From: Verrucomicrobiia bacterium
Lineage (GTDB): Bacteria; Verrucomicrobiota; Verrucomicrobiia; Limisphaerales; UBA1319
Reading direction: 5' to 3'
Length of the DNA stretch: 64,000 bases
Assembly (NCBI GenBank): GCA_963664225.1
Contig: OY760937.1
Location: 1,056,001 to 1,120,000, forward strand
A model generated the notes under the pieces. The model was not told the origin of the DNA. It saw only the letters and a list, made by a program, of their open reading frames with translations, and ran no database searches. This document shows, piece by piece, positions 5,930 to 23,604 of the stretch (positions within the stretch are counted from its first letter, which is position 1; every line of letters starts with the position of its first letter). The translations under genes and the position numbers were made by a program.

Positions 5930-6104
5930 ATGATGAGGGTGAATGCAACGCCCGGACTCTCAGAAAAACAGGAAAGAACTTCCAATGGTGGAGTTCGATT
6001 CTCGCTTCGCTCAAAGATTGCGTTTGGGTTTCGTTTGCGTCTCGGTTCCAATTTCCCTTTTCTTGGCAAAGCCCAGACTCTAAGGTGTCTGGAAGTAATC
6101 GGGA

Positions 6105-7247
6105 TTGATCATGGAACCGGTCTTAAAACTTCTGCGGGAATTGGTTGCGCTGCCCAGCGTCAATCCGGCCTTTTTGCCGCCCGGAGACATCCATACTGGC
6201 GAGCGCCGGGTGGCGGATTTTCTTGCGGCCCAAGCGGGTGTGTTGGGTCTGGACGTCGATTTTCAGGAGGTTTTACCCGGCAGGTCCAATCTTTGGGTGC
6301 GGCTTGAACCGCAGGGGCCGGTGCGGCGCAGGGTGGTTCTGGCGGCGCACATGGATACAGTGGGTGGGCTGGAGATGCTGGGCTCGCTTTTCACACCCCG
6401 GATGGCCAAAGGGCGGCTGTATGGTCGCGGCGCCTGCGACACCAAGGGCAGCGTGGCGGCGTATTTCACCGCGCTGGCGCAGGTGGCGGGTGGTTCCCAT
6501 CGACCTCAAAACACCGAGATTCTCTTTATCGGACTCATTGATGAGGAGAATGACCAGGCCGGATCGCGCGCCGTGGTGAAGCGAAAACTGAAGGCGGACC
6601 TGGCCATCGTTGGCGAACCGACCTTGCTGAAAGTGGTGACCGCACATAAAGGGGACCTCTGGCTGCGGCTGGAAACCCAGGGTCGCGCAGCGCACGGCGC
6701 CACGCCCGAGTTGGGGCGCAACGCAGTCCACGAAATGGCGCGGATAGTGGATTTTCTGGAGACAGGCTATCGGAAACAGTTGGAACGGCGCAGCCATCCT
6801 TTGCTTGGTAAACCCACCGTCAATGTCGGCGGAATCAAGGGCGGTGTGCAGCCCAATGTGGTTCCCGCGCAATGCTCGGCTTGGGTGGATCGCCGCACCT
6901 TGCCCGGTGAGACGGAGCGGGGCATCATTCGGGAATTGCGTGACGCATTGAAAGGGCAGGGCTTGAAAGCGGAGATTGCCAGCACAAAGAACGGGCCCTG
7001 TCCGTCGTTGGAAACTGATTTTCAAAATCCATTGGTTCGTGATTTGTTCAAAGCTGCGGGCCAGACGAAGCCCGAAGGAGTGCGCTATTTTTGCGACGCC
7101 GCCATTCTGGCCGGGGGCGGCACGCCGAGCGTTGTTTTCGGGCCTGGGGATATTGCGCAGGCGCACACGTCCGACGAATGGATATCGATCGCTTCCCTCA
7201 ATAAATCCGTGCAAGTGTTGACGCGATTTCTGGAGTCCCAGCCATGA
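6105..7247 (+). CDS. M20 family metallopeptidase (ArgE/DapE-like deacylase)
   Basis: AHMDTV, LYGRGACDTKG, DEE, GEPT, GRAAHG, FGPGDIAQAHTSDEW motifs. Confidence 0.9.
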   Translation: MIMEPVLKLLRELVALPSVNPAFLPPGDIHTGERRVADFLAAQAGVLGLDVDFQEVLPGRSNLWVRLEPQGPVRRRVVLAAHMDTVGGLEMLGSLFTPRMAKGRLYGRGACDTKGSVAAYFTALAQVAGGSHRPQNTEILFIGLIDEENDQAGSRAVVKRKLKADLAIVGEPTLLKVVTAHKGDLWLRLETQGRAAHGATPELGRNAVHEMARIVDFLETGYRKQLERRSHPLLGKPTVNVGGIKGGVQPNVVPAQCSAWVDRRTLPGETERGIIRELRDALKGQGLKAEIASTKNGPCPSLETDFQNPLVRDLFKAAGQTKPEGVRYFCDAAILAGGGTPSVVFGPGDIAQAHTSDEWISIASLNKSVQVLTRFLESQP

Positions 7248-8197
7248 ACGCGCCTCTGCCGCTGGTCACCATCATCATTCCCACCAAACCGGATTTGCGG
7301 GAAATTCAGGCGGTTGGTGCCGCGCTGAAATTGGATTATCCCAAGGACCTGCTGGAGATCATTGTGGCGCGTGGAACACAGCCGGCGGTGCAGCGGAATA
7401 AGGCTTTGCGCGAGGCGCGTGGGGAACTCGTCTATTTCCTGGATGACGACAGCATTCCAGAGCCTGGCAATTTGCGACGGGTGACGAACTGGTTCGATCA
7501 GCCCGAGGTTCAAATTGTGGGGGGGCCCAATTTGTGCCCGCCGAATGCTCCCAAGTTGGAGCAAGCCTTTGGGTTGGTGATGGGTGCCTTGCTCGCGTTC
7601 GGACCCAGCCGCGCGCGTTATAGCCCTGTGGGAAAAGCGCGTCCGTCCAGCGAGAAGGAACTGATTTTGTGCAACATGATTGCCCGTCGTGAACCGCTAT
7701 TGAAGCTGGGCGGTTTTGATGAGGCGCTTTATCCCAACGAAGAAAACGCCTTGATGGACGAGCTCCAAAAGCAGGGCGGGCAGATGATCTACGACCCGGA
7801 ATTCCGGATTGAACGAAGGCCGCGCAAGACGCTCAAGGCGTTCATGAAAATGCTGATGACCTACGGACGCGGTCGCGCGGAACAGTTTCGCCTGCATCCG
7901 ACACCCGGTTCGGCGTTGAACCTGGTGCCGCCCCTGTTTTGCCTGTATTTGCCCATGGCCCTGATTTTTCGCGGATTGTGGCTGTGGCCGCTGGCGTTTT
8001 ACGCCCTGGCAGTTCTGGCCCAAACAGCGGCGTTGCGGACGCCCTCGGGCCGCAGGATGGCGCGTGTGGCGCCTTTGATTGTGCTCACTCATCTGCTCTA
8101 TGGCGCGGGATTTTGGAAGGGATTATTCACCCGGTTGACTCCGCCAACAGTGGAGCGAGCCAATGCGGTTACTTTGGAGCGCGTGCCTGTATTATGA
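7244..8197 (+). CDS. GT2 family glycosyltransferase with C-terminal TM helices
   Basis: LVTIIIPT, QRNKALREARGELVYFLDDD (DxD), GGFDE, hydrophobic C-terminus. ATGA overlap with the upstream gene. Confidence 0.85.
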   Translation: MNAPLPLVTIIIPTKPDLREIQAVGAALKLDYPKDLLEIIVARGTQPAVQRNKALREARGELVYFLDDDSIPEPGNLRRVTNWFDQPEVQIVGGPNLCPPNAPKLEQAFGLVMGALLAFGPSRARYSPVGKARPSSEKELILCNMIARREPLLKLGGFDEALYPNEENALMDELQKQGGQMIYDPEFRIERRPRKTLKAFMKMLMTYGRGRAEQFRLHPTPGSALNLVPPLFCLYLPMALIFRGLWLWPLAFYALAVLAQTAALRTPSGRRMARVAPLIVLTHLLYGAGFWKGLFTRLTPPTVERANAVTLERVPVL

Positions 8198-9465
8198 GCG
8201 GAACGTCGAGCAAAGCCTCATTTTTCAAACAGGGCGGGTGGATGGTGGTGGCGACTGTCGGCGGCGGCGTTTTCATGTCAGCGGTGCATCCGTTGGTGTC
8301 GAAAATGCCGCCCGATGAATACGCAATATTCTACTCGCTGCTAAGGGTGTTTTTGCTGTTGGGGATTCCCGCGGGTGGCCTGCAAACCATCTTTGCGCAA
8401 CAGACGGCGGCGTCATTGGAGGACCGCCAGGCCCGTCAACTTACGGGAGCCACGCGCGCGGTGTTGCGCGCGTCATTCCTGATATGGCTGGTTCTGTCCT
8501 CGTTTATTCTGATGGCCAAAAGCAGCATTATGGACGCCTTGCAGATTACCCATTTCGCCGCCCTGGGTTTTACAGTCCTCCTTGGTCTGCCCTCGTTGTG
8601 GATGCCGGTGTTCAAGGGGTTGTTGCAGGGGCGGCAAAACTTTGCTGGCTTGGGATGGGTGTTGATGCTTGATGGCATGTGCCGCTTTGCCAGTATCGCC
8701 GTGCTGGTGGTCATTCTCCATGGGCAATCGGGCAGCGCCATGGCCGGGGCGTTTCTTGGACAGGTGGTTGCCATCATCGTGGGCTTGTGGCTGACGCGGG
8801 ATGTGTGGCGTGGTCCATGCGAACCTTGCGAATGGCGGCCCTGGTTTCGCAAGGTGATCCCTTTGACGTTGGGAACCGCCGCGTTGCTATTCATGTCCAA
8901 TGCGGATGTCCTGTTCGTTCAAAATGCCATTCGCAATGAAACGGCACTCTACAGCGCCGGTGCGATGATCGGATTTGCGCTGGCACAATTCATCCTTCCG
9001 CTGGCGACGGTCATGTTTCCCAAAATTGTCCACAGTGCCGCGCGCGCTGAAAAGTCGGATGCGCTGGCCATGACCTTGAAAAGCACGGCGTTGTTGGGAG
9101 GGTTGGCGGCACTGGCATCCACCTTGCTCCCCGAATTGCCGTTGCGGATTCTGTATTTTCGCAATCCGGCGTATTTTGTTACAGCGGCGCCATTGGTGCC
9201 GTGGTTTGCATGGGGGATATTGATTTTAAGCATGGCTTATGTGCTCGTGACCAACCTTCTGGCCCGGGAAAAGTTCGCGATTGTTCCCTGGCTGGTGGTG
9301 ATCGCCCTGGCCTATGGGGCGACCTTATATGGCGTTCGCGGATCGCTCGTTCACATGGAACCGCTGATCGCCTTCCGTCGGGTGATTCAGATTCTCTCGG
9401 TTTACAGTGCTGTGATTCTGCTGGTCTCGATGCGGTTCACATGGCCCCGAAAACAGGAGCCCTGA
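8194..9465 (+). CDS. Wzx/MOP-type polysaccharide flippase-like membrane protein
   Basis: About 12 hydrophobic helices; MSNADVLFV, ALYSAGAMIG, VMFPKIV patterns. ATG at 8194 overlaps the GT2 stop (ATGA). Confidence 0.75.
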   Translation: MSGTSSKASFFKQGGWMVVATVGGGVFMSAVHPLVSKMPPDEYAIFYSLLRVFLLLGIPAGGLQTIFAQQTAASLEDRQARQLTGATRAVLRASFLIWLVLSSFILMAKSSIMDALQITHFAALGFTVLLGLPSLWMPVFKGLLQGRQNFAGLGWVLMLDGMCRFASIAVLVVILHGQSGSAMAGAFLGQVVAIIVGLWLTRDVWRGPCEPCEWRPWFRKVIPLTLGTAALLFMSNADVLFVQNAIRNETALYSAGAMIGFALAQFILPLATVMFPKIVHSAARAEKSDALAMTLKSTALLGGLAALASTLLPELPLRILYFRNPAYFVTAAPLVPWFAWGILILSMAYVLVTNLLAREKFAIVPWLVVIALAYGATLYGVRGSLVHMEPLIAFRRVIQILSVYSAVILLVSMRFTWPRKQEP

Positions 9466-10347
9466 TTACGAACGCCGACCCAGTTTGACGAATTGCTCCG
9501 GGGACACGCCGTAGTGCTTTTTGAACGCGCGTGAAAAATGATAAGGATCGTCGAATCCCAATTCGTTGGCCACTTCCTTGATGAGTTGGTTCGAATCGAT
9601 CAGCCGCTGGGCTGCGGCCCTCATGCGCAGACGCATCATGTGGTGATAGGGACTGGCATGGTTGAATCGCTGGAACAACCGGCACATGTAAGCCGCATTC
9701 ACATGGCACGCGCTGGCGAGATCCTGCGCAGTGTGAAGTTCAAGTCCGTGTTCCTCAAGATGCTTCAAACAGCGTTGGTAGGTGTAGTAGGCCCGTAATT
9801 CTGAAGAGCCGTAGGGCACTTGAATATCCGCGCAACGAATCAGCAGGCACTCCAGTTGCAGCGAGCACAGCCGCGGGGCGTGTTGGGACGCGCTGAGTCC
9901 CGCGGCAATCAGTTCGTTGAAATTCTCGATCAGGGCGCCTGTGGAGGCCGCCTGGCGAATGGTTCCCGGCGCCAGCCCATATTCCTTTAATAAACCTCCA
10001 GCCTTGCGCCCGTTGAAATCCACGAAATATTTGAGCAGACTCTGGCCGTCATCCGGTACGATGGAATGTTCCACCCCGGGGCCGTAAGTGAAGACCGCTC
10101 CCGGTTGAAGGGTGAATTTCTTTCCATCCAACACCAGCGCGCCATGACCGCCCGCCACATATTCGAGGCAAAAATAAGGAAAGTTCGTGCGATGAATCTT
10201 ATAGCGCGGGTCGGATTGTTCGCAACCGCCGCAGACGACCGCGAGATCCGTCGCGTGGCGCGGATTCAGATCGAGAAAAAAACGGCGCGCCTCCGAGACC
10301 TGGGTGGAGAAAAACTCCGGCTGGGCCAATGGTTCTGTTTTTTTCAT
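9466..10347 (-). CDS. AraC family transcriptional regulator
   Basis: N-terminal cupin-like ligand domain and C-terminal double HTH (IKEVANELGFDDPYHFSRAFKKHYGVSP). Divergent from the sugar cluster. Confidence 0.93.
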   Translation of the reverse strand: MKKTEPLAQPEFFSTQVSEARRFFLDLNPRHATDLAVVCGGCEQSDPRYKIHRTNFPYFCLEYVAGGHGALVLDGKKFTLQPGAVFTYGPGVEHSIVPDDGQSLLKYFVDFNGRKAGGLLKEYGLAPGTIRQAASTGALIENFNELIAAGLSASQHAPRLCSLQLECLLIRCADIQVPYGSSELRAYYTYQRCLKHLEEHGLELHTAQDLASACHVNAAYMCRLFQRFNHASPYHHMMRLRMRAAAQRLIDSNQLIKEVANELGFDDPYHFSRAFKKHYGVSPEQFVKLGRRS

Positions 10348-10358
10348 GGATCAGCAAT

Positions 10359-10395
10359 GGTCAAAAATATCCATCATTCGGTCAACAATGACCAT
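10359..10395. promoter_or_regulatory. Candidate AraC-type operator: two direct repeats with 21-bp period
   Basis: GGTCAAAAATATCCAT (10359) and GGTCAACAATGACCAT (10380), 13/16 identical, in the divergent intergenic region. Confidence 0.55.
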
Positions 10396-10530
10396 GGTGG
10401 CTTGCCCGGTCCTTGGGCAATATGCTTCTTATAGATGGTTGACGCGCGTGGGGTATTCAACCCAAAATGTTGAAAATCGTCGGAAGCCGGATTTTTGAAC
10501 CGCACGGCGAAATTTGAAATACAAGCGATT

Positions 10531-10920
10531 ATGTTAAAGAATGGCATACTCAACCCGCAGATCAATGATCTGTTAAGCCGGGTGCGTCACACGAACCTGC
10601 TGGTGATCTCGGACCGGGGCTTTCCCTTCTGGCCGGAAATTGAAACCGTGGATGTTTCTGTCGTTGATGATCTGCCGACCGTCTTGCAGGTGCTCGCCGC
10701 TGTGCGTGGCAACTTCATCATTGGCAAGGCCTGGATGGCCCGGGAATTTCTACGTGAGAACAACGCCGCTACGCAAAAGGCTTTTGACATGGCGCTGGAG
10801 GGAATTCCCCGCGTGTTTGAGTCGCACGTTAAATTGAAGGAGCGCGTGCCTCTGGCCATTGGATTGATACGCACAGGGGACACCGTGCAATACGCAAACA
10901 TGGTTTTGGAATCCGCATAG
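10531..10920 (+). CDS. RbsD/FucU family sugar mutarotase/pyranase
   Basis: MLKNGILNPQI..RVRHTNLLVISDRGFP, SHVKLKE, IRTGDTVQYAN. ATG at 10531. Confidence 0.88.
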   Translation: MLKNGILNPQINDLLSRVRHTNLLVISDRGFPFWPEIETVDVSVVDDLPTVLQVLAAVRGNFIIGKAWMAREFLRENNAATQKAFDMALEGIPRVFESHVKLKERVPLAIGLIRTGDTVQYANMVLESA

Positions 10921-11041
10921 TTTGTAGTTTGGATTGGCGCGCGGCCGCCGTTGCGGTTGGGTGCCAGATTTTATTAATTGAATAATATCCATCTTTCACC
11001 AAAGGGTTGAAAGGTTTGGAAAAAAAGAAAAGAATCAGAAT

Positions 11042-12028
11042 ATGAAAGAACAGTTGACAGTGGTGGCTGGAGCCGGTGGCTTTATTGGAGGATCCCTGGT
11101 GGCCGATTTGCGCCGTAAAGGTTATCCCCGTATCCGTGCGGTGGACGTCAAGCCCCTCACCGAGTGGTATCAGAGGTTCGATGATGTGGAGAACATCGTT
11201 CTGGACCTCAATCTGCGCGAGAATTGCAATGAAGCCTGCCGTGGCGCTTATCAGGTGTTCAATCTGGCGGCGAACATGGGCGGCATGGGATTCATCGAGC
11301 GCAACAAGGCCTTGTGCATGTTGTCCGTGCTGATTAATACACACATGCTGCAGGCAGCCATTAAGTATGATGTTAAACGGTTTTTCTATGCCTCAAGCGC
11401 CTGTGTCTATAATGGTGACAAACAAAAGGTGGTGGATGCGCCCGCACTAAAGGAGGAGGACGCCTATCCCGCGCTGGCGGAGGACGGTTACGGTTGGGAA
11501 AAATTATTTTCCGAGCGCATGTGCCGCCATTTCCGCGAGGACTTCGGCCTCTACACCCGCGTTGCCCGTTTTCACAATGTCTATGGGCCTAATGGCACCT
11601 GGGATGGCGGACGTGAAAAAGCGCCTGCGGCCATCTGCCGGAAGGTGCTTGAGAGCAAGATGTCGGGCAATCATGACATCACCATTTGGGGCAAGGGCGA
11701 TCAAACTCGCTCTTTTATGTATATCGATGACTGCGTCAAGGGCATTCAGATGATCATGGACAGCAATATCCTCGAACCGATCAACCTTGGCAGCAGCGAA
11801 ATGGTGTCGATCAACCAATTGGTGGATCTGGTCGAGAGCATCGCGGGCATCAAGCTCAAGCGGCATTATGATCTGAGCGCGCCCAAGGGCGTCAATGGCC
11901 GCAACAGCGACAACACGATGATCCAGCAACTGTTGCATTGGGAGCCGAACATCAAGTTGCGCGACGGTTTGGAAAAGACCTACGCATGGATTCATGACGA
12001 AATGATCAACAAACGCCAAAGCAAGTAA
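11042..12028 (+). CDS. GDP-mannose 3,5-epimerase-like extended SDR
   Basis: GAGGFIG, FNLAANMGGMGFI, FFYASSACVY (catalytic Cys), YGWEK (YxxxK), RFHNVYGP, GGREKAPAAICRK (catalytic Lys). These match the plant GME signature as recalled. Confidence 0.85.
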   Translation: MKEQLTVVAGAGGFIGGSLVADLRRKGYPRIRAVDVKPLTEWYQRFDDVENIVLDLNLRENCNEACRGAYQVFNLAANMGGMGFIERNKALCMLSVLINTHMLQAAIKYDVKRFFYASSACVYNGDKQKVVDAPALKEEDAYPALAEDGYGWEKLFSERMCRHFREDFGLYTRVARFHNVYGPNGTWDGGREKAPAAICRKVLESKMSGNHDITIWGKGDQTRSFMYIDDCVKGIQMIMDSNILEPINLGSSEMVSINQLVDLVESIAGIKLKRHYDLSAPKGVNGRNSDNTMIQQLLHWEPNIKLRDGLEKTYAWIHDEMINKRQSK

Positions 12029-12050
12029 CAGGCTTCAACATTAATGATTG

Positions 12051-12082
12051 GAAACGCGGATGACGGCATCCGCGTTTCTTTT
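12051..12082 (+). terminator. Intrinsic terminator-like hairpin
   Basis: GAAACGCGGATG-ACGG-CATCCGCGTTTC (12-bp stem) followed by TTTT, 22 bp after the epimerase stop. Confidence 0.65.
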
Positions 12083-12146
12083 GGCTTGGATCGGCTCCGG
12101 CCATTCACTGTATCCGGTGCTCATCAACCTCCAATATTGACCCGAC

Positions 12147-15100
12147 ATGTTTCAACCGTGGGATTATTTGATTGTAACCGCTTCGAACGACAGCCAGGCG
12201 GCTGCGTACCGACGGCAGCTCGATTTGCGGCGTGAACTGGGGTTGCTCCCGGACATTGGGCAGGTTCTGGTGGTGGCGGATCTGGAGGGCAAGCGCATCG
12301 GAAGCGGTGGCAGCACGCTGCTCTGCCTGATGGAGGTTCTCTCTCGCGAAATCGATCGTGGCGGATTGGACGCGCGCGATTGGGAGACATTGCAGGCTGT
12401 GCTGGCGCAACGGCGGGTCTTGATCATTCACGCCGGGGGAGATAGTCGCCGGCTGCCTGCCTATGGGCCATGCGGCAAAATCTTTGTGCCCGTGCCGGGT
12501 GAGAGCGACAGCGCGTTGGGTTCCACATTGTTCGACCGGCAGTTGCCAATCTTCATGGGGTTGCCTGCATCGCTGCGAGGGCAGGGACAGGTGGTGGTGA
12601 CTTCTGGCGATGCCTTGATCCTGTTTGAAAGCGGTGAAATGCCGCCGGTTGCGCAGGGGATTACCGCGCTCGGTTGCCTGGCTTCCCCTGAGGCGGCTAG
12701 TAAACACGGCGTGTTTTGCGCCAATGAACAGGGCCAGGTTCGGGTTTATCTTCAGAAACCGAAAGTCGCGGAGCAAATCAGCAAGGGCGCGGTGAACCGT
12801 TTCGGCCAGAGTGTTCTGGACATTGGCGTGATGAGTTTTGACGCCGCATCTGCGGTGGCGCTGTTGAAGGCGTTTGAGGTGGAGCCACTGGCTGCGGCTG
12901 AAGCGGGAAAAAAAGACTCCATGCGTTTCGGTTGGTCCGCCCCGATGCGCGAACTCATTCTCAACTCCGGTTTGGATTGGTATCGGGAAATTTGCTGTGC
13001 GCTGGGATCTGAAGTGACCGTCGATCACCATCTGGCCAGTGTGCGCGACAGCGGTTCCAAGTGGCCGAAAGAAAAGCTGGCGGCTCTATTTAAACCTCTG
13101 GCCAGGCTGCCATTTCATTTGCGTCAAATTCCGCAGTGCCAATTCCTTCATTTTGGGACCACACGCCAGTTGATCAGCAGCGGACAGGACTTGACGCAAT
13201 TCGATCGCGGCGTCAGTCGGCCGGGCGATAATCTCCTCATCAATCACCATTGCGTGAATGGGGGCGTCATTACTGGCGGAAATTCATGGCTCGAGGCGTG
13301 TCGCGTCGCTGCGCCCTTGACTCTCGGTGGCGGCAATGTGCTGGTGGGTGTGGATGTCGATCAACCCTTGAGTCTTCCTGCCGGCGCCTGCGTGGATGTC
13401 ATTGCCGGGAAAAATAATCGTGGTGACGCCGTTCATTTCTGTCGTCTCTACCATTCGGCGGACACGTTCAAGGACACGACGGCCAAAGGTGGAACAATCG
13501 CCGGACGACCTCTCCTGGAGTGGCTGGCCATGGCGGGATTAACTCCCGCACAAGTCTGGGATGCCAGCATTCCCGAGAACCAGCGCAGCCTTTGGGATGC
13601 ACGGGTATTCCCGGCGCAATCTGGCAAGTCCGATTATCACCAATGGCTCTGGATGTTGGATCCAGCTCAGGCAACGCCAAATCAAAAACAGGCGCTTGCC
13701 GCCGCCGATCGCTACAGCGTGGCCGAAATGGCGCTTCTGGCGGATCAGGAGGCCTTTTATCAGCGTCGCTCACAGCATCGTGCTGAGGAAATTCGTCATG
13801 CGCTCAAGAGGCTTTTCCGGCGCGACAGCGGCTTTTCCGCACGGGAACTGGCCTTTGTGCTCGAGCATTCCGAAGACAGGGCGGCATGGCTGGCGGATTT
13901 ACTAGGCGACGCCCATTTTCAGATGAATGGGGGCGCCGGGGCGGGAATGGGAGTGTTCATTTGCTGCCGGATTCTCCATTCGATGGCCAGCGCCATCATG
14001 GTGATGGCGGAAACCCGCAGTGGCGAGCCGCGAGTTGTGGATGTCGTGCCCGGATTAACCGGCGCGATCACCCCGGCATTGGCAGAGTGGCTGGCTTCAC
14101 TGGGTTTGAAAATATCGGACACGATTCTGGCTTCAGAATGGACTAAAAAGGTGACCGATTGCGCTTTCGAACAAATCAGCCGCACCATTCTGATCAGTTC
14201 GCTGAGTCGGGTGGAGCATCCTCGCAATGCCTTGCGCGGCGGTGAGACCGTGTGGGGACGGGCCCCGGCAAGGCTCGAGTTGGGCGGCGGATGGACCGAT
14301 ACGCCTCCATACACTCTCGAATATGGCGGCAGCGTGATCAACACAGCCGTCAATCTCAACGGCCAGCCGCCGATCCATTGTTATGGACGGGTGATTCAGG
14401 AACCGGTCATTCGGCTTTTTTCCATCGAAGCCGGTCTGCACGTTCAGATCGATCAGTTGAAGGATTTGCTCGATTATCGCAATCCGCGCGACATTTTTGG
14501 CCTGGTCAAAGCCGCTCTGGCGATTTCCGGATTCTCCCCTGAAATGGCGGACTGGCCCGCCAACGTGACGTTACGCCAGATGTTGGAGGAGTTTGGGGGT
14601 GGCATTGAATTAACCACGTTGACCGGGATTCCCACCGGGTCGGGACTTGGCACTTCGAGCATTGTGGGAACGGTGCTGGTGGGTGTCATCAACCGGATGC
14701 TGGGTCGCCCGTTGAGTCAGCGCGAATTATTCCACAACGTGCTGCGCCTGGAACAGGCCCTGACGACCGGGGGCGGTTGGCAGGACCAGATCGGGGGCGG
14801 TGTCGGGGGAAGTAAATTAACAACGACGCTGGCCGGCTTATTCCCGGATCCCAATATTCATTACGTTCCGGACGATGTGATCGATCCACGGCTTAACGGC
14901 GGCTCCACGCTTCTTTATTATACCGGCATTACGCGTCTGGCGAAAAACATCCTGCGCCAGATTGTGGGCGATTATCTGGATCGCAACCGGGCAACGATGT
15001 CCTGCCTGGCGCAGGAGCATCAGGTGTCGCGCAATTTGATGGAGGCCATGTCGCGCAAGGACTCCGAAGCCTTTGGACGATATGTGGATGAGGCCTGGAG

Positions 15101-15350
15101 GTTGCAGAAGCAGTTGTGCAGTGAGGTTACCAATCCATCCATCGAACATTTGCTGGCGATGATTCGGCCCCATATTCACGGGGCGCGCATTCTTGGGGCG
15201 GGATCGGGCGGGTTCATGCTCATGATTTGCAAAACCCCGAAGGACGCTGCCGCAATTCGCGAAAAGCTCCTGCGCGAGCCTCTCAATGAACGCTCGCGTT
15301 TTTTTGACTTTGCAGTCAATGATAAGGGCTTGGAAGTGACAACTTGTTAA
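12147..15350 (+). CDS. fkp: Bifunctional L-fucokinase / sugar-1-phosphate guanylyltransferase (Fkp/FKGP-like)
   Basis: N-terminal RIGSGGSTL, IIHAGGDSRRLP, HGVF, FLHFGT; C-terminal GHMP kinase PARLELGGGWTDTPPY, PTGSGLGTSS, TTGGGWQDQIGG, GAGSGGF. Confidence 0.88.
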   Translation: MFQPWDYLIVTASNDSQAAAYRRQLDLRRELGLLPDIGQVLVVADLEGKRIGSGGSTLLCLMEVLSREIDRGGLDARDWETLQAVLAQRRVLIIHAGGDSRRLPAYGPCGKIFVPVPGESDSALGSTLFDRQLPIFMGLPASLRGQGQVVVTSGDALILFESGEMPPVAQGITALGCLASPEAASKHGVFCANEQGQVRVYLQKPKVAEQISKGAVNRFGQSVLDIGVMSFDAASAVALLKAFEVEPLAAAEAGKKDSMRFGWSAPMRELILNSGLDWYREICCALGSEVTVDHHLASVRDSGSKWPKEKLAALFKPLARLPFHLRQIPQCQFLHFGTTRQLISSGQDLTQFDRGVSRPGDNLLINHHCVNGGVITGGNSWLEACRVAAPLTLGGGNVLVGVDVDQPLSLPAGACVDVIAGKNNRGDAVHFCRLYHSADTFKDTTAKGGTIAGRPLLEWLAMAGLTPAQVWDASIPENQRSLWDARVFPAQSGKSDYHQWLWMLDPAQATPNQKQALAAADRYSVAEMALLADQEAFYQRRSQHRAEEIRHALKRLFRRDSGFSARELAFVLEHSEDRAAWLADLLGDAHFQMNGGAGAGMGVFICCRILHSMASAIMVMAETRSGEPRVVDVVPGLTGAITPALAEWLASLGLKISDTILASEWTKKVTDCAFEQISRTILISSLSRVEHPRNALRGGETVWGRAPARLELGGGWTDTPPYTLEYGGSVINTAVNLNGQPPIHCYGRVIQEPVIRLFSIEAGLHVQIDQLKDLLDYRNPRDIFGLVKAALAISGFSPEMADWPANVTLRQMLEEFGGGIELTTLTGIPTGSGLGTSSIVGTVLVGVINRMLGRPLSQRELFHNVLRLEQALTTGGGWQDQIGGGVGGSKLTTTLAGLFPDPNIHYVPDDVIDPRLNGGSTLLYYTGITRLAKNILRQIVGDYLDRNRATMSCLAQEHQVSRNLMEAMSRKDSEAFGRYVDEAWRLQKQLCSEVTNPSIEHLLAMIRPHIHGARILGAGSGGFMLMICKTPKDAAAIREKLLREPLNERSRFFDFAVNDKGLEVTTC

Positions 15351-15353
15351 ACC

Positions 15354-16454
15354 ATGCGCCATGCACTGATAATTGCCGGTGGGTCGGGAACGCGCCTTTG
15401 GCCGATGAGTCGGGCGGGGCTCCCCAAACAACTGATTCCGTTCATTGGCGGGAAAAGCCTGCTCCAGATTTCGTTCGATCGCCTGGAGGGATTGACCTCG
15501 GCGGAGAATCGGCATGTTTGCGCCAATCAGGGACAGGAGGCGCTCATTCGTGCTGCGCTTCCCGCATTGGGCAGGGAGCAATTCCTGGGAGAACCAGTGG
15601 GGCGCGACACGCTCAACGCCGTGGGTTTTGCGGTGGCTGTGATCGCGCGCAAGGATCCTGAGGCAGTCATCGCAGTCGTCACAGCCGACCATTTGATCGA
15701 GCCAGTCGCCGAGTTTCAGGCGATTGTGAAAGCCGGTTTTGAGTTGGTCGAAAAACAGCCTCAAATTCTGGTCACCTTTGGCATTGAACCCACAGGACCC
15801 GCCACAGGCTACGGTTATCTGCAATTGGACGCTCCCATTGGCGATGGCACCAATGCGCGCCGTGTGAGCCAGTTTCGGGAGAAACCTGACGAGGCGACCG
15901 CGCTGGAATATTTCAAAGCCGGCCCGGACCAGTATTTGTGGAATAGCGGCATGTTCGTCTGGAAGGCGACGACGCTTCTGGATTGCATCCGTGGTTACGA
16001 ACCACAGGTTTTTGAAGGCTTGAATAAAATAGCGGAAGCTTGGGACACACCTCAGCGTATCTCAACTTTGGCTGCGGTTTATCCGAGGTTGCGCAAGATC
16101 AGTGTGGATTTTGCAGTAATGGAACCGGCGTCAAGGGATCCCAAGGTTGCGGTGGCGGCGATTTCCATGCCACTGCAATGGTTGGATGTGGGATCGTGGC
16201 CCAGTTTTGCGCAGACCTGTCCGCATGATGCGCAGGGCAACGCCATCGCCGCCCAAAAGCAACTACTTCAAAATACTTCGGGCAGCTTGATTGCATCGAG
16301 TGATCCCAATCATTTGATCGCCGTGATGGGCTGCCAGGATCTGATTGTGATTCATACGCCCAATGCCACCCTGATTTGCCATGCAAGCCAGGCCGAGCGC
16401 ATCAAGGAAATGCAGGCCAGGGCTGGCGCGCAGTTCGGAAGTCAGTATGTGTGA
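15354..16454 (+). CDS. manC: Mannose-1-phosphate guanylyltransferase (no PMI domain)
   Basis: IIAGGSGTRLWPMSR..PKQ, EPVGRDT, ADHLI, TGYGY, FREKPD, WNSGMF, ISVDFAVME, WLDVGSW. Confidence 0.92.
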   Translation: MRHALIIAGGSGTRLWPMSRAGLPKQLIPFIGGKSLLQISFDRLEGLTSAENRHVCANQGQEALIRAALPALGREQFLGEPVGRDTLNAVGFAVAVIARKDPEAVIAVVTADHLIEPVAEFQAIVKAGFELVEKQPQILVTFGIEPTGPATGYGYLQLDAPIGDGTNARRVSQFREKPDEATALEYFKAGPDQYLWNSGMFVWKATTLLDCIRGYEPQVFEGLNKIAEAWDTPQRISTLAAVYPRLRKISVDFAVMEPASRDPKVAVAAISMPLQWLDVGSWPSFAQTCPHDAQGNAIAAQKQLLQNTSGSLIASSDPNHLIAVMGCQDLIVIHTPNATLICHASQAERIKEMQARAGAQFGSQYV

Positions 16455-16551
16455 GTACCGGTTTGCAGGCTTTTGGGATTAAGTTGCGGAATTGGAGGCG
16501 AATTTGCTTCGCTTGGCGGAGTGAATCCCTTACAAAATCGCCCTAAGTATT

Positions 16552-18342
16552 ATGACGACCGCGACCAGATCATCAGAATTCAAGCCGCTGAAATTCGGAA
16601 CCAGTGGACTCAGGGACTTGGACGAGAACCTGACCGATTTGGAGGTGTTCACCAACACACGCGGCTTTTTAAAATACCTATTGGAACTGGGGGCAAACCA
16701 TTTGCCAGGGGGCATTCAGCCCGGCAGCAAAGTGGCGCTGGCAGGAGATTATCGTCCGAGTTCCCGCCCTGATAAAATTCCCAGAGCGGTTGCCGCCGCC
16801 ATTTTGGATGCCGGCTGTGTGGTGGCCTATTGCGGCCCGGTGCCCACTCCCGCCGTGATGAATCTGGGAATGGTGCGCGGCATTGCCAGTATCATGGTGA
16901 CCGGCAGTCATATTCCATTTGGCCAGAACGGCATTAAATTCAACCGCCCGGATGGGGAGATTCTGAAATCGGAAGAGGCATCCATACTCGCGCATGTGGC
17001 GGAGGTGCGCGTCCGGGTGGCCGAGCAGCAAACACGAGAACCGCTGTTTGATTCCAAGGGAGCTTTCATGCCGGTCAAATCACTAGGCGTGACGCACATG
17101 ACCTTATTGTCTCACGCGTCGGAATCCTTGCGCAAACCCGATGCCCGGGCGGCTTCGGAGTTCGTAAACCGGTATCTACAGGAGTTCGGCTCCGAAGCAC
17201 TGCGGGGGCTGGAATTGGTGTTTTTCAAACAATCCGCCGTGGGGCGCGATATTTTACCCGCCATTTTTCGTGGCTTGGGCGCAGTCGTATCCGAGGTTGG
17301 TGCGCTGAACGTCGAGGCGGGCGAATTCCTGCCCGTAGACACGGAAAAAATGGAGGAATCGGTCCGCGCCGATTTGCGAACTTTGGCTCGCGAACATGCC
17401 GAGCGCACCGGTCGAAAGCCATTTGCAGTGTTGAGTGCGGATGGCGATTCGGATCGCCCCGTGTTCTGCGATGAAAATGGCGAATTCGTTCCCGGCGACC
17501 AATTGGGTGTGCTGGCCTCCTTGTATCTCAAGCCTTCCTTCGTGGCGCTGCCCATTACCTGCAACAGCGCCGCCGTGGAAGCCCTGCAAAGTTTTGCGAC
17601 CGTGGTCCAAACCAAAGTTGGATCTCCCTACATCAATAAGGCCATGCAGGACCAACTGGCGCTTGATCCCCAGGCGCGGGTTGCGGGTTACGAGGCCAAT
17701 GGCGGTTATCTTTTGGGATCGGATTGGCTGTTCGAGGGGAAAACTCTCAAGGCCCTGCCCACGCGCGATAGCGTGCTGCCCATGATCTGTGCATTGCTGC
17801 TGGCGCGTCGTGGAACTGTGACCACGGCCTCCAACAAGACCTTGCGGATCGATAAAGTTTCCGATTTGGCTGGTTTGATCGATCGGCATACCGCGGCAGG
17901 CGTGGTTGATCGCCACGACGGAGTGCCTTACGCATCGGCTGAAACTGGCAAACGCATTGTTGCGGCGCTATGTCCGCAGTCCGGCGCGGTGATGGAAGTT
18001 GATTTCCAGCGGGAAACGGTTCTGCAGATTCCGACTAATACCGGTGGCAAAGTGAAATCAGCCGGGCAGGTTCTCAATCCAATGCTGTTCGAAGAATTGG
18101 AATCCATTCGGAAAAAGCTCTCCCATTACTTCCTGCCGGGGATGGGGTATTCGACCATTTCGAAGATCAATTATCTCGATGGCGTCCGAATTTATTTTGC
18201 CGACGGCGACATTGTTCAACTGCGGCCGTCGGGTAACGCGCCAGAGTTCCGGTTTTATACGGAGGCCGCCAGCGCAAGCCGGGCGCAGGAGATGTGTGGC
18301 CAACGCGTTGATATTGTTCGCCGGATGATCGAGAGTTTGTAA
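16552..18342 (+). CDS. manB: Phosphomannomutase
   Basis: FGTSGLR, MVTGSHIP (phosphoserine), DGDSDR (metal loop), GYEANGG, LRPSGNAPEFR. Confidence 0.9.
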   Translation: MTTATRSSEFKPLKFGTSGLRDLDENLTDLEVFTNTRGFLKYLLELGANHLPGGIQPGSKVALAGDYRPSSRPDKIPRAVAAAILDAGCVVAYCGPVPTPAVMNLGMVRGIASIMVTGSHIPFGQNGIKFNRPDGEILKSEEASILAHVAEVRVRVAEQQTREPLFDSKGAFMPVKSLGVTHMTLLSHASESLRKPDARAASEFVNRYLQEFGSEALRGLELVFFKQSAVGRDILPAIFRGLGAVVSEVGALNVEAGEFLPVDTEKMEESVRADLRTLAREHAERTGRKPFAVLSADGDSDRPVFCDENGEFVPGDQLGVLASLYLKPSFVALPITCNSAAVEALQSFATVVQTKVGSPYINKAMQDQLALDPQARVAGYEANGGYLLGSDWLFEGKTLKALPTRDSVLPMICALLLARRGTVTTASNKTLRIDKVSDLAGLIDRHTAAGVVDRHDGVPYASAETGKRIVAALCPQSGAVMEVDFQRETVLQIPTNTGGKVKSAGQVLNPMLFEELESIRKKLSHYFLPGMGYSTISKINYLDGVRIYFADGDIVQLRPSGNAPEFRFYTEAASASRAQEMCGQRVDIVRRMIESL

Positions 18343-18388
18343 GGTTTTCAGCGTTTGAATTGATTTTGCACCGCTCAAGCTCACTTTA

Positions 18389-18937
18389 ATGAAACCGTGG
18401 AAGACACTTGGACGGCAGGAGATTTGCCATCCGAATCCATTTTTAAAGGTCGAACTGCATAGTGTCGAACTGCCTGGTGGGCGGCGGATTGAGGATTGGC
18501 CGTGGGTGATTACGCCGGAATTCGCGGTGATGTTGGTTAGGGACACAGAGGGCTGGTTTTTGTGTTTTCGGCAAACAAAATATGCGGTGGAAGGGACGAC
18601 GCTTGCACCGGTGGGCGGTTTTCTGGAGCCGGGTGAGGATCCCCTGGCTGGCGCGCAGAGGGAACTCATGGAGGAAACGGGCTATACGGCCGGGAAATGG
18701 AAATCGCTTGGGAAGTACCCTGTGGACGCGAACAGGGGCTGCGGTGTGGCGCATTTGTTTGTGGCCTGGGATGCAGAGAAGTCCGGGGAAAGTGGCGAGG
18801 GGGATTTGGAGGAACAGGAGCTGGTGCTTTTGACGCATGAGCAAATGTCCGATGCTCTGGTGGACGGCCAATTCAAGGCGCTGCCCTGGATCGCTGTCGT
18901 GGCGCTGGGCCTGCGGTATCTGGAAACGCATTCCTGA
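18389..18937 (+). CDS. Nudix hydrolase (NDP-sugar pyrophosphatase-like)
   Basis: Nudix box GFLEPGEDPLAGAQRELMEETGY; ADP-ribose/GDP-mannose pyrophosphatase-like N-terminus. Confidence 0.88.
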   Translation: MKPWKTLGRQEICHPNPFLKVELHSVELPGGRRIEDWPWVITPEFAVMLVRDTEGWFLCFRQTKYAVEGTTLAPVGGFLEPGEDPLAGAQRELMEETGYTAGKWKSLGKYPVDANRGCGVAHLFVAWDAEKSGESGEGDLEEQELVLLTHEQMSDALVDGQFKALPWIAVVALGLRYLETHS

Positions 18938-19010
18938 TTGGAGCAGGGGTCAAATATCGCCCGGCATGTGTTGACGCTTTCCGTGGGTGGATTAAGAATG
19001 GGCCATTCCT

Positions 19011-20333
19011 ATGAGCAATGACAAAAGCAGGACACTCTCGCGGCGTCGGTTTCTGAAACAGATGACGATGGGGGCCAGCGCGGTGGCGCTGCCTTATTTT
19101 ATTCCGGCGTCCGCACTGGGGCGTGACGGCTATGTTCCGCCCAGCGAGCGCATCGTGATGGGCGGCATTGGCATGGGGGGGCGCGGTTCTTATGATCTGG
19201 GCTGCATGCTGGCGGAGCCGGATGTGCAGTGGGTTGCCGTTTGCGATGTTGTGAAAGGCAAGCGCGAAGCGGCGAAGAACACTGTGGACGGTAAGTATGG
19301 CAACAAGGATTGCGCCGTGTATGGCGATATGCGGCAGCTTCTGGCACGCACGGACATCGATGCCGTGTTGATTGCCACCGGGGACCGCTGGCACGCGCTG
19401 GCTTCGGTGATGGCGATGCGGGCGGGCAAGGATGTTTATTGTGAGAAGCCGGCCTGCCTGACGATGGCGCAGGGACAATTGGTTGTGGAAACCGCCCGCC
19501 GGTACGCCCGGGTTTACCAGACGGGCGCCCAACGGCTCAGCGAGCCGAATCATGTTTTTGCCATTGAATTGGCCAGGTCCGGCCGACTGGGTCCGATTCA
19601 TACCGCTTATGCGGACATTCGTTGGCGCGACGGGTCGCGTCAGGACTGGCTGCCGGCGGAACCGGAACCGTCCAAGGATGAACTGGACTGGGATTTATTC
19701 CTCGGTCCCAGTCCGTGGAGGCCGTACAACAGCGGCTATCTGAATTCGGGGTGGTATCATTATTATGATTTCGCCACGGATGTTGCCATGTGGGGCGCGC
19801 ACTCGGTGACCCAGGCTTTGGCCGGGCTCGATATGACGAATGTTTCCAGCATCGAGTTCGAGTACGCGGGGCCGGATGAGACGATGGTGACGCATTTGTC
19901 CAACGGGGTGAAGCTGGTGCTGTTCCGGGTGAGCGGGTCGGTTTGGGAACCGTGCAAGTACTGGCATGGCGCCTGCGGGGAGCGGTTCGATGGCCCCGAG
20001 GGATGGGCTGGGGCTGCGGACGGTTATTCGCAAACGGATGTGTCATCCCCGGCGCTGTTGCGTGAATACAGGAAGGTGATCACGGAATACACGGGTCGGA
20101 CACAACGGTCGATGAGCCATTTGCGTGATTTCTTCGATTGCATCCACTCGCGCCAACTCACGGTGGCAAACCCTGAAGTCATGTGCCGGTCCATGCACAT
20201 CTGTCTGGCCGCCGACATTAGCGGGCAATTGAAACGAAACCTGAAGTTCGATCTAATCAAAGCCGAGTTTTTGGGCGATCCCGAGGCCAACCGGTTGAGG
20301 TCCCGCGCGATGCGGGTTCCTTATTCGATTTGA
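19011..20333 (+). CDS. Tat-exported Gfo/Idh/MocA oxidoreductase
   Basis: SRRRFLK twin-arginine signal, GGIGMGGRG, AVCDV, DAVLIATGDRWH, KDVYCEKP. Confidence 0.9.
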   Translation: MSNDKSRTLSRRRFLKQMTMGASAVALPYFIPASALGRDGYVPPSERIVMGGIGMGGRGSYDLGCMLAEPDVQWVAVCDVVKGKREAAKNTVDGKYGNKDCAVYGDMRQLLARTDIDAVLIATGDRWHALASVMAMRAGKDVYCEKPACLTMAQGQLVVETARRYARVYQTGAQRLSEPNHVFAIELARSGRLGPIHTAYADIRWRDGSRQDWLPAEPEPSKDELDWDLFLGPSPWRPYNSGYLNSGWYHYYDFATDVAMWGAHSVTQALAGLDMTNVSSIEFEYAGPDETMVTHLSNGVKLVLFRVSGSVWEPCKYWHGACGERFDGPEGWAGAADGYSQTDVSSPALLREYRKVITEYTGRTQRSMSHLRDFFDCIHSRQLTVANPEVMCRSMHICLAADISGQLKRNLKFDLIKAEFLGDPEANRLRSRAMRVPYSI

Positions 20334-20436
20334 TTCAACCATCCGGAAACCAAACCTTGGTTTTGCCTGCGATAACGCTTTCTTCGTGTGCGGGCTGAAC
20401 AAAAGGATGGTTTTTGGGAAAAATGCGGACTAATTT

Positions 20437-21078
20437 TTGAGTGTGATTGCGTTGATTGATTATGGATCGGGCAACTTGAGGAGCGTCGAAAAGGCGCTGC
20501 GGTTTGTCGGGGCGGACGTTCAAGTGGTCAGTGAACCCTCGGGTCTGCGCCATGCCCGGGCGGTGGTGCTTCCAGGGGTGGGGGCGTTCGACGACTGCAT
20601 TACCGCTTTATCGCGCCAGGGATTGTGCGATCCCATCCGCGAGTTTATTGCCTCGAACCGGCCTTTTTTGGGGATTTGCGTGGGCTATCAGGCGTTGTTT
20701 GAGCGGAGCGAGGAATTTGAGAGCAAAGCGGCTGGATTGGGTGTTTTCCATGGCAAAGTGGTCCGTTTTACCGAGCGGAAAGGATTGAAAATCCCGCAAA
20801 TCGGGTGGAATCAGATTGCCATAACACAGGCTGATTGTCCTCTGTATAAAGGGATTAAGGATGGCAGCTACGTCTATTTCGTTCACAGCTATTATCCGCA
20901 ACCGCTGGATGCCTCGATCATGGCCACCCGCACGGTCTATGGAGAAGCGTTTGCGTCATCCGTGTGTAAGGGGAACATCTTTGCGACCCAGTTTCATCCC
21001 GAGAAAAGCCAGGAAGTGGGATTGTGCCTATTGAAGAACTTTGTGGAACTGGCGGGAGCGAAGCGGGTCCAGGCGTGA
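20437..21078 (+). CDS. hisH: Imidazole glycerol phosphate synthase glutaminase subunit
   Basis: IDYGSGNLRSV, LPGVGAF, LGICVG, PQIGWN, YFVHSY, QFHPEKS. Confidence 0.96.
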   Translation: MSVIALIDYGSGNLRSVEKALRFVGADVQVVSEPSGLRHARAVVLPGVGAFDDCITALSRQGLCDPIREFIASNRPFLGICVGYQALFERSEEFESKAAGLGVFHGKVVRFTERKGLKIPQIGWNQIAITQADCPLYKGIKDGSYVYFVHSYYPQPLDASIMATRTVYGEAFASSVCKGNIFATQFHPEKSQEVGLCLLKNFVELAGAKRVQA

Positions 21079-21129
21079 AGTAGTTTTCAACTTAAGTGAC
21101 GAAAAACCCTAAAAATGCCCTTTTGGCAT

Positions 21130-21171
21130 TTGACAGTCGTTATGAGGCGATGTAAATACAATGTAGATACA
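21130..21171 (+). promoter_or_regulatory. Sigma70-like promoter with tandem palindromic operator
   Basis: TTGACA at 21130-21135. Tandem 11-mers ATGTAAATACA / ATGTAGATACA (21150-21171), each a TGTA-N2-TACA palindrome, overlap the -10 region upstream of the TA-like pair. Confidence 0.65.
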
Positions 21172-21203
21172 ATGAATGGGCAAATGATTTACAATTGAGC
21201 AAT

Positions 21204-21491
21204 ATGGAGTTCGATTGGAACGATTTGTCCTTTGAATTGGATAGTTCTTTGACGCCACGAGATATTGAAGAGTCGTTCGAGGATCCGTTTGCGATCAAGT
21301 TGCTGCCTGATTCGTCGCGATTTTCGGTGCAGGCCCGTTTTTTTAACTTGGGAAAGGCGGCGACTGGCAAAGGCATATTCAGTGTCTATCGAACCAACGG
21401 AAAGACGTTTCGGGTGATTTATGCGCGGTTCTTTGTGCCTGAAGAGCAGTTTTTCTATCAGCGCAAAGTGAACCAGTCTTTGAATCCGTAA
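21204..21491 (+). CDS. BrnT-like (RelE-fold) toxin homologue, atypical
   Basis: MEFDW start, IEESFEDP, RFFNLG, FRVIYAR..EEQFFY. Lacks the usual N..KHG segment. Confidence 0.65.
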   Translation: MEFDWNDLSFELDSSLTPRDIEESFEDPFAIKLLPDSSRFSVQARFFNLGKAATGKGIFSVYRTNGKTFRVIYARFFVPEEQFFYQRKVNQSLNP

Positions 21492-21631
21492 GAACCAGGA
21501 TTGCAGTAAGGCAGGATGGGTTCGCGGGATGAAGCGTGGTGAGACGATTTGGGGTTCAGGGTTAGTGATGTGGTTTACCAGTGGGTTGGCTGCCTACAAC
21601 CTGCTGGTAAGACCATAACTGAGAATTCGCC

Positions 21632-22693: not shown

Positions 22694-22708
22694 AGAAGAG
22701 AGACGACC

Positions 22709-23560: not shown

Positions 23561-23604
23561 GAGACGCCAGCCAGGCTGGCGGCTCACGTTGGAAAAGTTG
23601 TTAC

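Follow-up and report, generated by a model that had tools for sequence, protein, structure and literature searches.

A long-clade Fkp-like kinase/guanylyltransferase coupled to a GME-type epimerase in a Verrucomicrobiia gene cluster: a candidate GDP-linked route for L-galactose

The stretch of DNA analysed here, hereafter the window, comprises 64,000 nucleotides (G000:C1:1056001-1120000) of a Verrucomicrobiia bacterium whose genome is a single 5.78-Mb contig, and it harbors a cluster of seven genes (9466-18937) encoding an AraC-family regulator, an RbsD/FucU-family mutarotase, a GME-type epimerase, a long Fkp-like bifunctional enzyme, ManC, a ManB-like phosphohexomutase and a Nudix hydrolase. 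The main result of our analysis is that this cluster is a real hub between guanosine diphosphate (GDP)-L-galactose and GDP-mannose, its firm shared core being the coupling of GME to a kinase/guanylyltransferase for a sugar of the L-fucose type. The cluster may be read as an entry module for a free L-sugar joined to the GDP-mannose node, and we consider the chances that it mediates net assimilation of L-galactose to be about even. The sequence does not reveal which way the net flux goes, and the genes might serve either to burn L-galactose or to make it for surface glycans.

Gene identities were established through Pfam and NCBIfam family searches and Protein Data Bank (PDB) sequence searches of the open reading frames (ORFs) in the window, and these bore out all seven labels and coordinates put forward in a first-pass annotation of the DNA. 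The regulator gene (9466-10347, minus strand; HTH_18 E 2.9e-20, AraC_binding cupin E 1.6e-11) is divergent from the rest of the cluster across a 147-nt intergenic region (10348-10494), where a consensus scan located a promoter-like site (10439-10468, plus strand) with 9/12 hexamer matches, a pattern match only. A homologue with 55% identity occupies the same divergent position before fucU and fkp in a same-genus relative (G401, locus L014). The remaining genes all lie on the plus strand, with intergenic gaps of 121, 118, 3, 97 and 46 nt from fucU onward. The first of them (10495-10920) encodes a sugar mutarotase or pyranase of the RbsD/FucU family (PF05025, E 4.9e-22), whose PDB matches are RbsD ribose pyranases in three cases out of three and FucU in none; homologues 67-69% identical to it are found beside long Fkp genes (L014, L015) or beside GME (G403). 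The epimerase gene (11042-12028), besides which no GME-type gene was found in the genome, encodes a product that aligns with Arabidopsis GME (2c59, E 4.5e-89) over residues 8-326. It is an extended short-chain dehydrogenase/reductase (SDR) that has Tyr-x3-Lys and the Cys/Lys pair and closely resembles characterised GMEs; the stretches around its catalytic Cys, Tyr-x3-Lys and Lys are conserved as FFYASSAC, YGxEK and GGREKAPAA, and in the available part of PMC6678494 the Cys and Lys are described as the acid-base pair.

The next gene (12147-15350) encodes a long-clade, Fkp-like bifunctional sugar-1-kinase/sugar-1-phosphate guanylyltransferase of 1067 aa, in which PF07959 (residues 85-490), PF00288 (809-883) and PF08544 (964-1044) reproduce the Fkp architecture of an N-terminal pyrophosphorylase and a C-terminal GHMP kinase on one chain. 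The protein matches B. fragilis FKP (5yys) with an E value of 1.6e-116, and residues D136, H168, G169, Q186, K187 and H272 are conserved in the alignment. Its score of 581.3 bits falls under the NCBIfam Fkp equivalog cut-off (NF009948, 721 bits), and it belongs to a distinct clade of ~1060-aa proteins that are ~30-40% identical to canonical Fkp, the split between both types having a branch support of 100 in a FastTree phylogeny of 118 Fkp proteins. A canonical Fkp (969 aa, 1061.9 bits) is encoded elsewhere in the same genome (C1:213094-216003), and the long Fkp of the window is therefore an extra paralogue. The two halves of the long Fkp also appear apart from each other: a split form seems to exist in Aminicenantes (L054, L058, L060), with matches to the kinase half only directly after GME, and stand-alone homologues of the N-terminal pyrophosphorylase half (~580-590 aa) are encoded in two relatives (G404:C259:5233-6852 and G453:C10:38180-39790).

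The last three genes point to the mannose side of the hub. The ManC gene (15354-16454) starts 3 nt past the end of fkp, and its product is identified as a mannose-1-phosphate guanylyltransferase by its NTP_transferase and ManC beta-helix regions and by its similarity to solved GDP-mannose pyrophosphorylases (T. maritima 2x5s, E 9e-56). It lies under the cut-off of TIGR01479, a model that also spans the phosphomannose isomerase (PMI) domain absent from this ManC. The following gene (16552-18342) encodes an atypical, ManB-like alpha-D-phosphohexomutase of 596 aa, with all four PGM_PMM domains (I-IV) and with phosphoserine, metal, sugar and phosphate loops recognisable as TGSHIP, DGDSDR, YEANGG and RPSGNAPE, in line with the motif patterns of the superfamily (S-H-x-P, DxDxDR and the sugar and phosphate loops). 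Its best PDB match is a Brucella 'phosphomannomutase' (4hjh, E 6.7e-66), and it reaches no NCBIfam equivalog cut-off. The idea that it might be the only phosphomannomutase (PMM) of the genome was ruled out, as a Pfam search uncovered a generic 478-aa phosphoglucomutase (PGM)/PMM; GlmM is encoded in the genome as well. The Nudix hydrolase (18389-18937; PF00293, E 7.5e-14) has an intact Nudix box and is of the nucleoside diphosphate-sugar or adenosine diphosphate (ADP)-ribose pyrophosphatase type: its PDB matches are ADP-ribose pyrophosphatases and NudF, and its best subfamily matches also include NudE. By sequence membership it falls outside the Gmm/WcaH and NudK subfamilies, and it scores 18.9 bits against the YffH/AdpP subfamily, for which the cut-off is 79.55.

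The known reaction of GME joins GDP-L-galactose and GDP-mannose, and phosphohexomutases require a 6-OH on their substrate. Because of the latter requirement, L-galactose is the sugar that gives every gene of the cluster a role. Judging by the families involved, the RbsD/FucU-type enzyme would provide the appropriate anomer for the long Fkp, which would phosphorylate L-galactose at C1 and then form GDP-L-galactose, possibly accepting L-fucose as well. GME would equilibrate GDP-L-galactose with GDP-D-mannose, and mannose-1-phosphate could leave the nucleotide in two ways, either through ManC working in reverse with the pyrophosphate released by Fkp or through the Nudix hydrolase, yielding guanosine monophosphate and mannose-1-phosphate. 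The 596-aa mutase would then produce mannose-6-phosphate, to be converted into fructose-6-phosphate by a PMI encoded elsewhere. The net outcome would be a sugar-induced, AraC-controlled assimilation of L-galactose into the mannose pool. Such a cluster would probably be amphibolic, with ManC and perhaps the mutase also working forward to supply GDP-mannose to Gmd and Fcl; galE of E. coli likewise serves both directions. As first reported, gmd and fcl are absent from the window, yet both are present elsewhere in the genome, together with canonical fkp: Gmd scores 555 bits, above its cut-off, and has a Gmd-like neighbour, and Fcl scores 493 bits, slightly under its cut-off of 500. Hence, the organism has a de novo GDP-fucose synthesis that requires GDP-mannose. 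The Gmd-like paralogue adjoining the bona fide Gmd (G000:C1:4827436-4829431) is possibly a GDP-rhamnose reductase, and a distance of 10 kb, occupied by unrelated genes, separates Fcl from the canonical Fkp (202246-216003).

The functional coupling of GME to an L-sugar kinase/guanylyltransferase, as proposed in the first-pass annotation, is found again in several phyla, and it takes two non-homologous forms. With regard to the first form, the search of a large protein collection with the long Fkp yielded 1021 proteins (E <= 1e-50), a set that includes canonical Fkps; the best 120 of these 1021 matches are 52-100% identical and 966-1130 aa long, and their source names belong to Acidobacteriota and Planctomycetota. 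We compared 145 loci with an Fkp match (80 from species genomes and 65 from metagenomes), of which 119 fall in the long clade at an identity of at least 44%, the upstream side being judgeable in 77. An SDR gene lies immediately upstream of the long Fkp, on the same strand, in 52 of these 77 loci: it is of GME type in 13, spread across several phyla, and of another type (LegB, GalE or UXS-like) in 39, with no SDR gene in the other 25. GME is also found just upstream in L039, L054, L058, L060 and L066, which lie outside the 77 (Fkp N-terminus or margin missing). The 'GME-like' genes of 41-46% identity are true GME homologues, the example tested (L038) matching 2c59 with an E value of 5e-84 and retaining the Cys and Lys stretches.

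Within these pairs, GME subtypes follow the subclades of Fkp. In the FastTree phylogeny, Acidobacteria provide the sister group of the Fkps from the window and from its same-genus relative, and the GMEs of the acidobacterial loci L015 and L017 are 75-79% identical to the GME of the window. GME lies upstream in 14/21 tree rows of an Aminicenantes-like Fkp subclade, and another SDR in 39/56 rows of a planctomycete one. Thus, GME and long Fkp are paired in two subclades of Fkp, a Verrucomicrobia/Acidobacteria one and an Aminicenantes-like one, and a separate subtype of GME goes with each; the presence of GME upstream across subclades indicates that the pairing is old and recurrent. In a sample of 401 genomes from the phylum, 44 genomes had GME homologues (E <= 1e-60), 57 had Fkp homologues (E <= 1e-40) and 12 besides that of the window had both, on the same contig in none of them (0/12); this says little on the long clade, because the Fkps in those genomes are canonical.

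The second form of coupling is seen within the family of the window organism. In three same-family genomes the gene directly after GME encodes a 263-aa protein with no Pfam match (L191 in G403, 5789-8923; L192 in G406, 6652-9424; L193 in G409, 5269-9538). At its two ends, and in collinear order, this protein resembles the motifs with which the Fkp kinase domain begins and ends (BLASTP E 0.013-0.017), and its named neighbours in the Atlas are all GHMP kinases. The gene that comes next in G403 and G406 encodes a 273-aa protein with a C-terminal half matching RfaE domain II, a sugar-1-phosphate adenylyltransferase (E 4.7e-18), and in G403 this gene is followed by a mutarotase 67% identical to that of the window; in G409, a fucosidase-like hydrolase takes the place of the 273-aa gene. 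GME is thus tied to an L-sugar kinase and a nucleotidyltransferase in two non-homologous ways within one family, and this constitutes the strongest argument for a substrate pool shared by GME and the activating enzyme.

Relatives also provide a context of free-sugar use, as in G401, where the parts are scattered over separate contigs. At one contig end, homologues of AraC (55%), the mutarotase (69%) and the long Fkp (68%) stand together with no GME among them; the GME gene (61%) overlaps the start of a glycoside hydrolase family 29 (GH29) alpha-L-fucosidase gene on the same strand; and a third site (L182, G401:C107 302-6575, minus strand) combines the mutase (58%), a PMI-like gene, a Na+/solute symporter and the Nudix hydrolase (60%) in a one-strand run with gaps of 4, 12 and 262 nt. 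The PMI-like gene encodes a divergent 409-aa cupin with a match to NCBIfam manA (E 9.4e-9) under the cut-off; its weak PDB matches are all mannose-6-phosphate isomerases (13/13), and every named Atlas neighbour belongs to PMI families. This gene and the symporter supply, in G401 only, the PMI and transporter whose lack the first-pass annotation had noted. With regard to the parts of a catabolic operon, the window itself holds the regulator, and a transporter and a releasing hydrolase are linked only to the homologues in G401.

Taken at their fullest, these data would describe a complete GDP-linked, Leloir/Isselbacher-like catabolism of L-galactose, present in several phyla in two non-homologous versions and fed by L-galactose from plant or algal glycans. 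In such a pathway the long Fkp clade would be an L-galactokinase/GDP-L-galactose pyrophosphorylase, GME would operate in reverse, and mannose-6-phosphate would be delivered by a dedicated 596-aa mutase after a Nudix acting as GDP-mannose pyrophosphatase, or pyrophosphorolysis by ManC. We see this as a tentative proposition whose chances fall somewhat short of even. Further points counted in favor of assimilation are nine GH29-like genes in the genome, a canonical Fkp besides the long one, a 596-aa mutase that comes on top of GlmM and the generic PGM/PMM, a class I PMI encoded elsewhere (C1:2933185-2934162, borderline score) and a cluster in which family searches detected no glycosyltransferase, flippase or polymerase between 9466 and 18937. 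No FucI scored above cut-off in the genome, and no linked pathway genes were seen in the neighbourhoods of the GH29 orthologue, of the best symporter homologue and of the Fcl/canonical Fkp region.

Other observations, extending from the layout of the cluster to the company its genes keep in relatives, count against a purely catabolic reading. Family searches revealed no sugar transporter, PMI or L-galactose- or fucose-releasing hydrolase in the whole window, so that the lack of a transporter and a PMI initially noted for the cluster extends to all 64,000 nucleotides. The PMI-like gene of G401 is not found in the window genome, being confined to G401 among the 61 genomes searched (1/61). The terminator-like hairpin reported between GME and fkp is real (12050-12079, plus strand): it has a 13-bp perfect stem, a 4-nt loop and a weak downstream T run, TTTGGCTTGG, and the 131-nt segment containing it folds at -39.2 kcal/mol (z -1.84), with no Rfam match in 9000-21500 at E <= 0.1. 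Hence, it may split fucU-GME from fkp-manC-manB-nudix. Co-clustering, which the first-pass annotation had set as a check, is upheld for the pair of GME and long Fkp (13/77 loci) and not for the whole, since the window alone shows all seven genes in this order and most GME-Fkp pairs stand alone among unrelated genes. The Fkp-ManC-mutase part recurs in a single 3.3-kb metagenome contig (L117), with an Fkp 95% identical to that of the window, and near the long Fkp in the 119 loci there are three cases of ManC (L015, L047, L117), one of the mutase (L117), two of the mutarotase, one of AraC and none of Nudix. The Fkp alignment gives no residue evidence for a preference for L-galactose: two residues are described as facing the methyl group of fucose in B. 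fragilis FKP, and of these Phe270 is conserved and Val137 is replaced by Ala, which seems to give no clear sign of a pocket for a 6-OH. B. fragilis FKP accepts L-galactose poorly (Km 3.3 mM, vs 34 uM for fucose) and, according to its authors, has a pocket that makes no specific contact with the methyl group of fucose (both from the available portion of PMC11982464).

The ManC of the window is also the only ManC-type gene found in the genome (tblastn E <= 1e-8, one match), the other five NTP_transferase genes being RmlA, GlgC, a glucose-1-phosphate cytidylyltransferase and two short ones without an assigned role. Therefore, this ManC must also serve biosynthesis and is not a dedicated catabolic enzyme, and the same sole copy is observed in a Bryobacteraceae genome (G460) with a FucU/GME/Fkp/ManC block. 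Furthermore, PMI and PMM also carry out the first two steps of GDP-mannose synthesis, and a Nudix gene beside manC and manB is known as well from biosynthetic clusters, as in the case of gmm in E. coli. Many long Fkp loci have an overtly biosynthetic setting. In planctomycetes, L127 (8749-18247) has the gene order SDR-long Fkp-Gmd-Fcl-like-TMEM260-like glycosyltransferase-flippase and L119 (8962-17125) the order SDR-Fkp-glycosyltransferase-methyltransferase-flippase, and in L047 (8081-14409) the order is Fkp-Fcl-ManC-Gmd. In addition, the GMEs of class relatives (70-73% identical) are located among genes for exosortase, WecG, Wzy, a methyltransferase and UDP-glucose dehydrogenase. Planctomycete long Fkp loci, with their LegB/GalE-like SDR upstream, look like a conserved glycan locus with a salvage arm.

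These data nourish the most serious alternative, to which we grant a substantial minority chance, namely dual supply of a GDP-sugar donor to a glycan. The forward, de novo route from mannose-6-phosphate would consist of the mutase, ManC and GME, the mutarotase and Fkp would salvage free L-galactose or L-fucose into that donor pool, and the Nudix hydrolase would trim the amounts of GDP-sugars, the role that Gmm has among the colanic acid genes; by analogy, GDP-L-galactose could come de novo through GME and by salvage through Fkp. In L047 the long Fkp would be a salvage arm placed next to genes that complete the de novo synthesis of its donor, and together with the planctomycete loci it makes the placement of salvage beside the last de novo step a recurring layout. 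The sole ManC of the window genome and G460 and the exopolysaccharide loci of the closest class-relative GMEs point the same way, and so does the literature, bacterial GME being tied so far only to lipopolysaccharides and antibiotics in the available parts of a GME review and the first paper on a bacterial GME (PMC8787198 and PMC6678494). Moreover, no Gmd was found in four of the five genomes that carry a GME-Fkp pair, a complete chromosome among these four, and Fcl-like matches, all under cut-off, were present in two of the five. Where Gmd is missing, GME and Fkp would be the sole sources of L-galactose or L-fucose donors. A family 2 glycosyltransferase (GT2) gene is also located 1.3 kb upstream of araC. 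However, it is not kept beside the cluster in G401, and the cluster itself is devoid of glycosyltransferase, flippase and polymerase genes. A mutarotase and an AraC regulator that senses a sugar typify the use of free sugars, and in relatives GME stands beside fucosidase-type hydrolases and the mutase and Nudix genes beside a symporter. In addition, Gmd, Fcl and a canonical Fkp already provide the genome with GDP-fucose, and dual supply offers no reason for the co-transcription of ManC with a salvage enzyme across a 3-nt gap. Of the catabolic direction advanced initially, there is thus circumstantial backing in G401 (AraC-mutarotase-Fkp, GME-GH29, mutase/Nudix with the PMI-like gene and symporter), and against it stand the sole ManC and the biosynthetic long Fkp loci.

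It is improbable that the cluster represents an ordinary fucose salvage flanked by housekeeping GDP-mannose genes, with Fkp acting as an ordinary fucokinase, GME devoted to an unrelated glycan and a gene order bereft of pathway meaning. Such a reading would accommodate the fact that all the genes come from known families, that the full order is restricted to the window and the Fkp-ManC-mutase part to one 95%-identical contig, that the parts are on separate contigs in G401, that GME and Fkp never share a contig in the 12 other genomes of the 401-genome sample and that 25 of the 77 judgeable loci have no SDR directly upstream. Nonetheless, an SDR in that position in 52 of the 77 is far from random, GME subtypes follow Fkp subclades, non-homologous kinase and transferase genes replace Fkp beside GME in relatives, and a second, canonical Fkp is available for fucose. 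Least probable of all is a pathway for another sugar, be it L-fucose (through GDP-L-fucose and 3,5-epimerisation to GDP-6-deoxy-D-mannose, that is, GDP-D-rhamnose), D-arabinose, a substrate of B. fragilis FKP (in the accessible part of PMC11982464), or L-gulose, whose GDP derivative is a by-product of GME (likewise in PMC6678494), since, even though the mutarotase resembles ribose pyranases more than FucU, the 6-OH-requiring mutase would have no role with 6-deoxy or pentose products, and Gmd with its Gmd-like neighbour could serve a GDP-rhamnose route.

Several other features of the window were recorded around the cluster. The GT2 gene, with weak MftF/EpsD-like matches, overlaps a 508-aa ORF without a family match (7244-9465, plus strand), and this pair ends 1 base before the araC stop. 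Next after the Nudix gene lies a Gfo/Idh/MocA oxidoreductase gene (19011-20333, plus strand), whose product bears a twin-arginine signal and partly matches glycoside 3-dehydrogenases; a gene 31% identical to it adjoins araC in G401. It was considered as a pathway member and set aside because of the twin-arginine signal, at odds with a cytoplasmic pathway. Farther away are several pseudopilin-like genes of the prepilin type (N_methyl) in a row, with proteins of 1250 and 2570 aa encoded after them (22034-37800, plus strand), the larger one with subtilase, P-domain and LamG domains; a gene for a 909-aa protein with a match to the hydrazine synthase alpha middle domain (3200-5929, minus strand; PF18582, E 6.7e-32); and a DDE_5 transposase gene (49939-51516, minus strand). 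Matches to prepilin-type and 'Verru_Chthon cassette' families, together with the organism names attached to the nearest loci, indicate Verrucomicrobiota. A group II intron reverse transcriptase/maturase (L206, 1263-2948) is encoded outside the window, ~3.7 kb from the GH29 orthologue.

If net assimilation of L-galactose were to prove true, the nucleotide-sugar route would be a second, unrelated solution to the use of this sugar and would reveal the first catabolic role for GME. It would also provide a function for a large, unstudied Fkp clade, help explain the use of L-galactose by glycan-degrading bacteria of soil and water, and supply enzymes useful for making GDP-L-galactose and other L-sugars. 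The window is a good test case, with the epimerase, kinase/transferase, ManC, mutase and Nudix genes lined up with an adjacent regulator. Full-text literature searches found no GDP-linked L-galactose catabolism, and the routes that we know of or found are oxidative only, as in Bacteroides vulgatus, where L-galactose is degraded via L-galactonate. These routes share with our cluster the presumed substrate and oxidise the free sugar without nucleotide sugars; none of their enzymes is encoded in the cluster. One of them, for L-glucose and L-galactose via L-galactonate, was described in 2025 in Luteolibacter LG18, from the same phylum (PMC12632266, available part).

Among known systems that do involve GDP-sugars, the gmd-fcl-gmm-manC-manB region for colanic acid in E. 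coli resembles the cluster in having ManC, ManB and a Nudix hydrolase together with a GDP-sugar-modifying SDR. On the other hand, the cluster lacks gmd, fcl and glycosyltransferases, its SDR is GME, its Nudix hydrolase is of the ADP-ribose pyrophosphatase rather than the Gmm type, and it adds AraC and a mutarotase. Mammalian fucose salvage relies on a mutarotase, a fucokinase and a pyrophosphorylase. The Fkp salvage of B. fragilis (FKP, 5yys/9iit) is matched by the same two-domain architecture of the window Fkp and by its mutarotase partner, whereas the long clade usually has an SDR gene directly upstream and the genome also keeps a canonical Fkp. The upper part of the Smirnoff-Wheeler route (PMI, PMM, GDP-mannose pyrophosphorylase and GME) seems to share its four activities with the present system, in contrast to the GDP-L-galactose phosphorylase (VTC2) and later ascorbate enzymes, not seen in the cluster; with a kinase/guanylyltransferase feeding the L-galactose end, a route of this kind can run in reverse. 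A further parallel is the Leloir pathway (GalM-GalK-GalT-GalE-Pgm), with which the cluster shares the sequence of mutarotase, anomeric kinase, nucleotide sugar, epimerisation, release of a hexose-1-phosphate and mutase; as with GalE, some enzymes of the cluster would be amphibolic. The differences are the use of GDP instead of UDP, of an L-sugar, of a 3,5-epimerase instead of a 4-epimerase, and an end product, mannose-6-phosphate, for which PMI is needed. The Leloir-type label of the first-pass annotation is therefore apt for the logic of the steps and inexact for the exchange reaction: a GalT-type (HIT) transferase domain is present in none of the seven cluster proteins, two pyrophosphorylases, or a Nudix hydrolase, would perform the exchange, and the cluster is for this reason nearer to the Isselbacher (pyrophosphorylase) variant than to the Leloir pathway proper. 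Built entirely of parts from known families, the pathway would thus be a variation on the nucleotide-sugar, Leloir-type scheme of catabolism.

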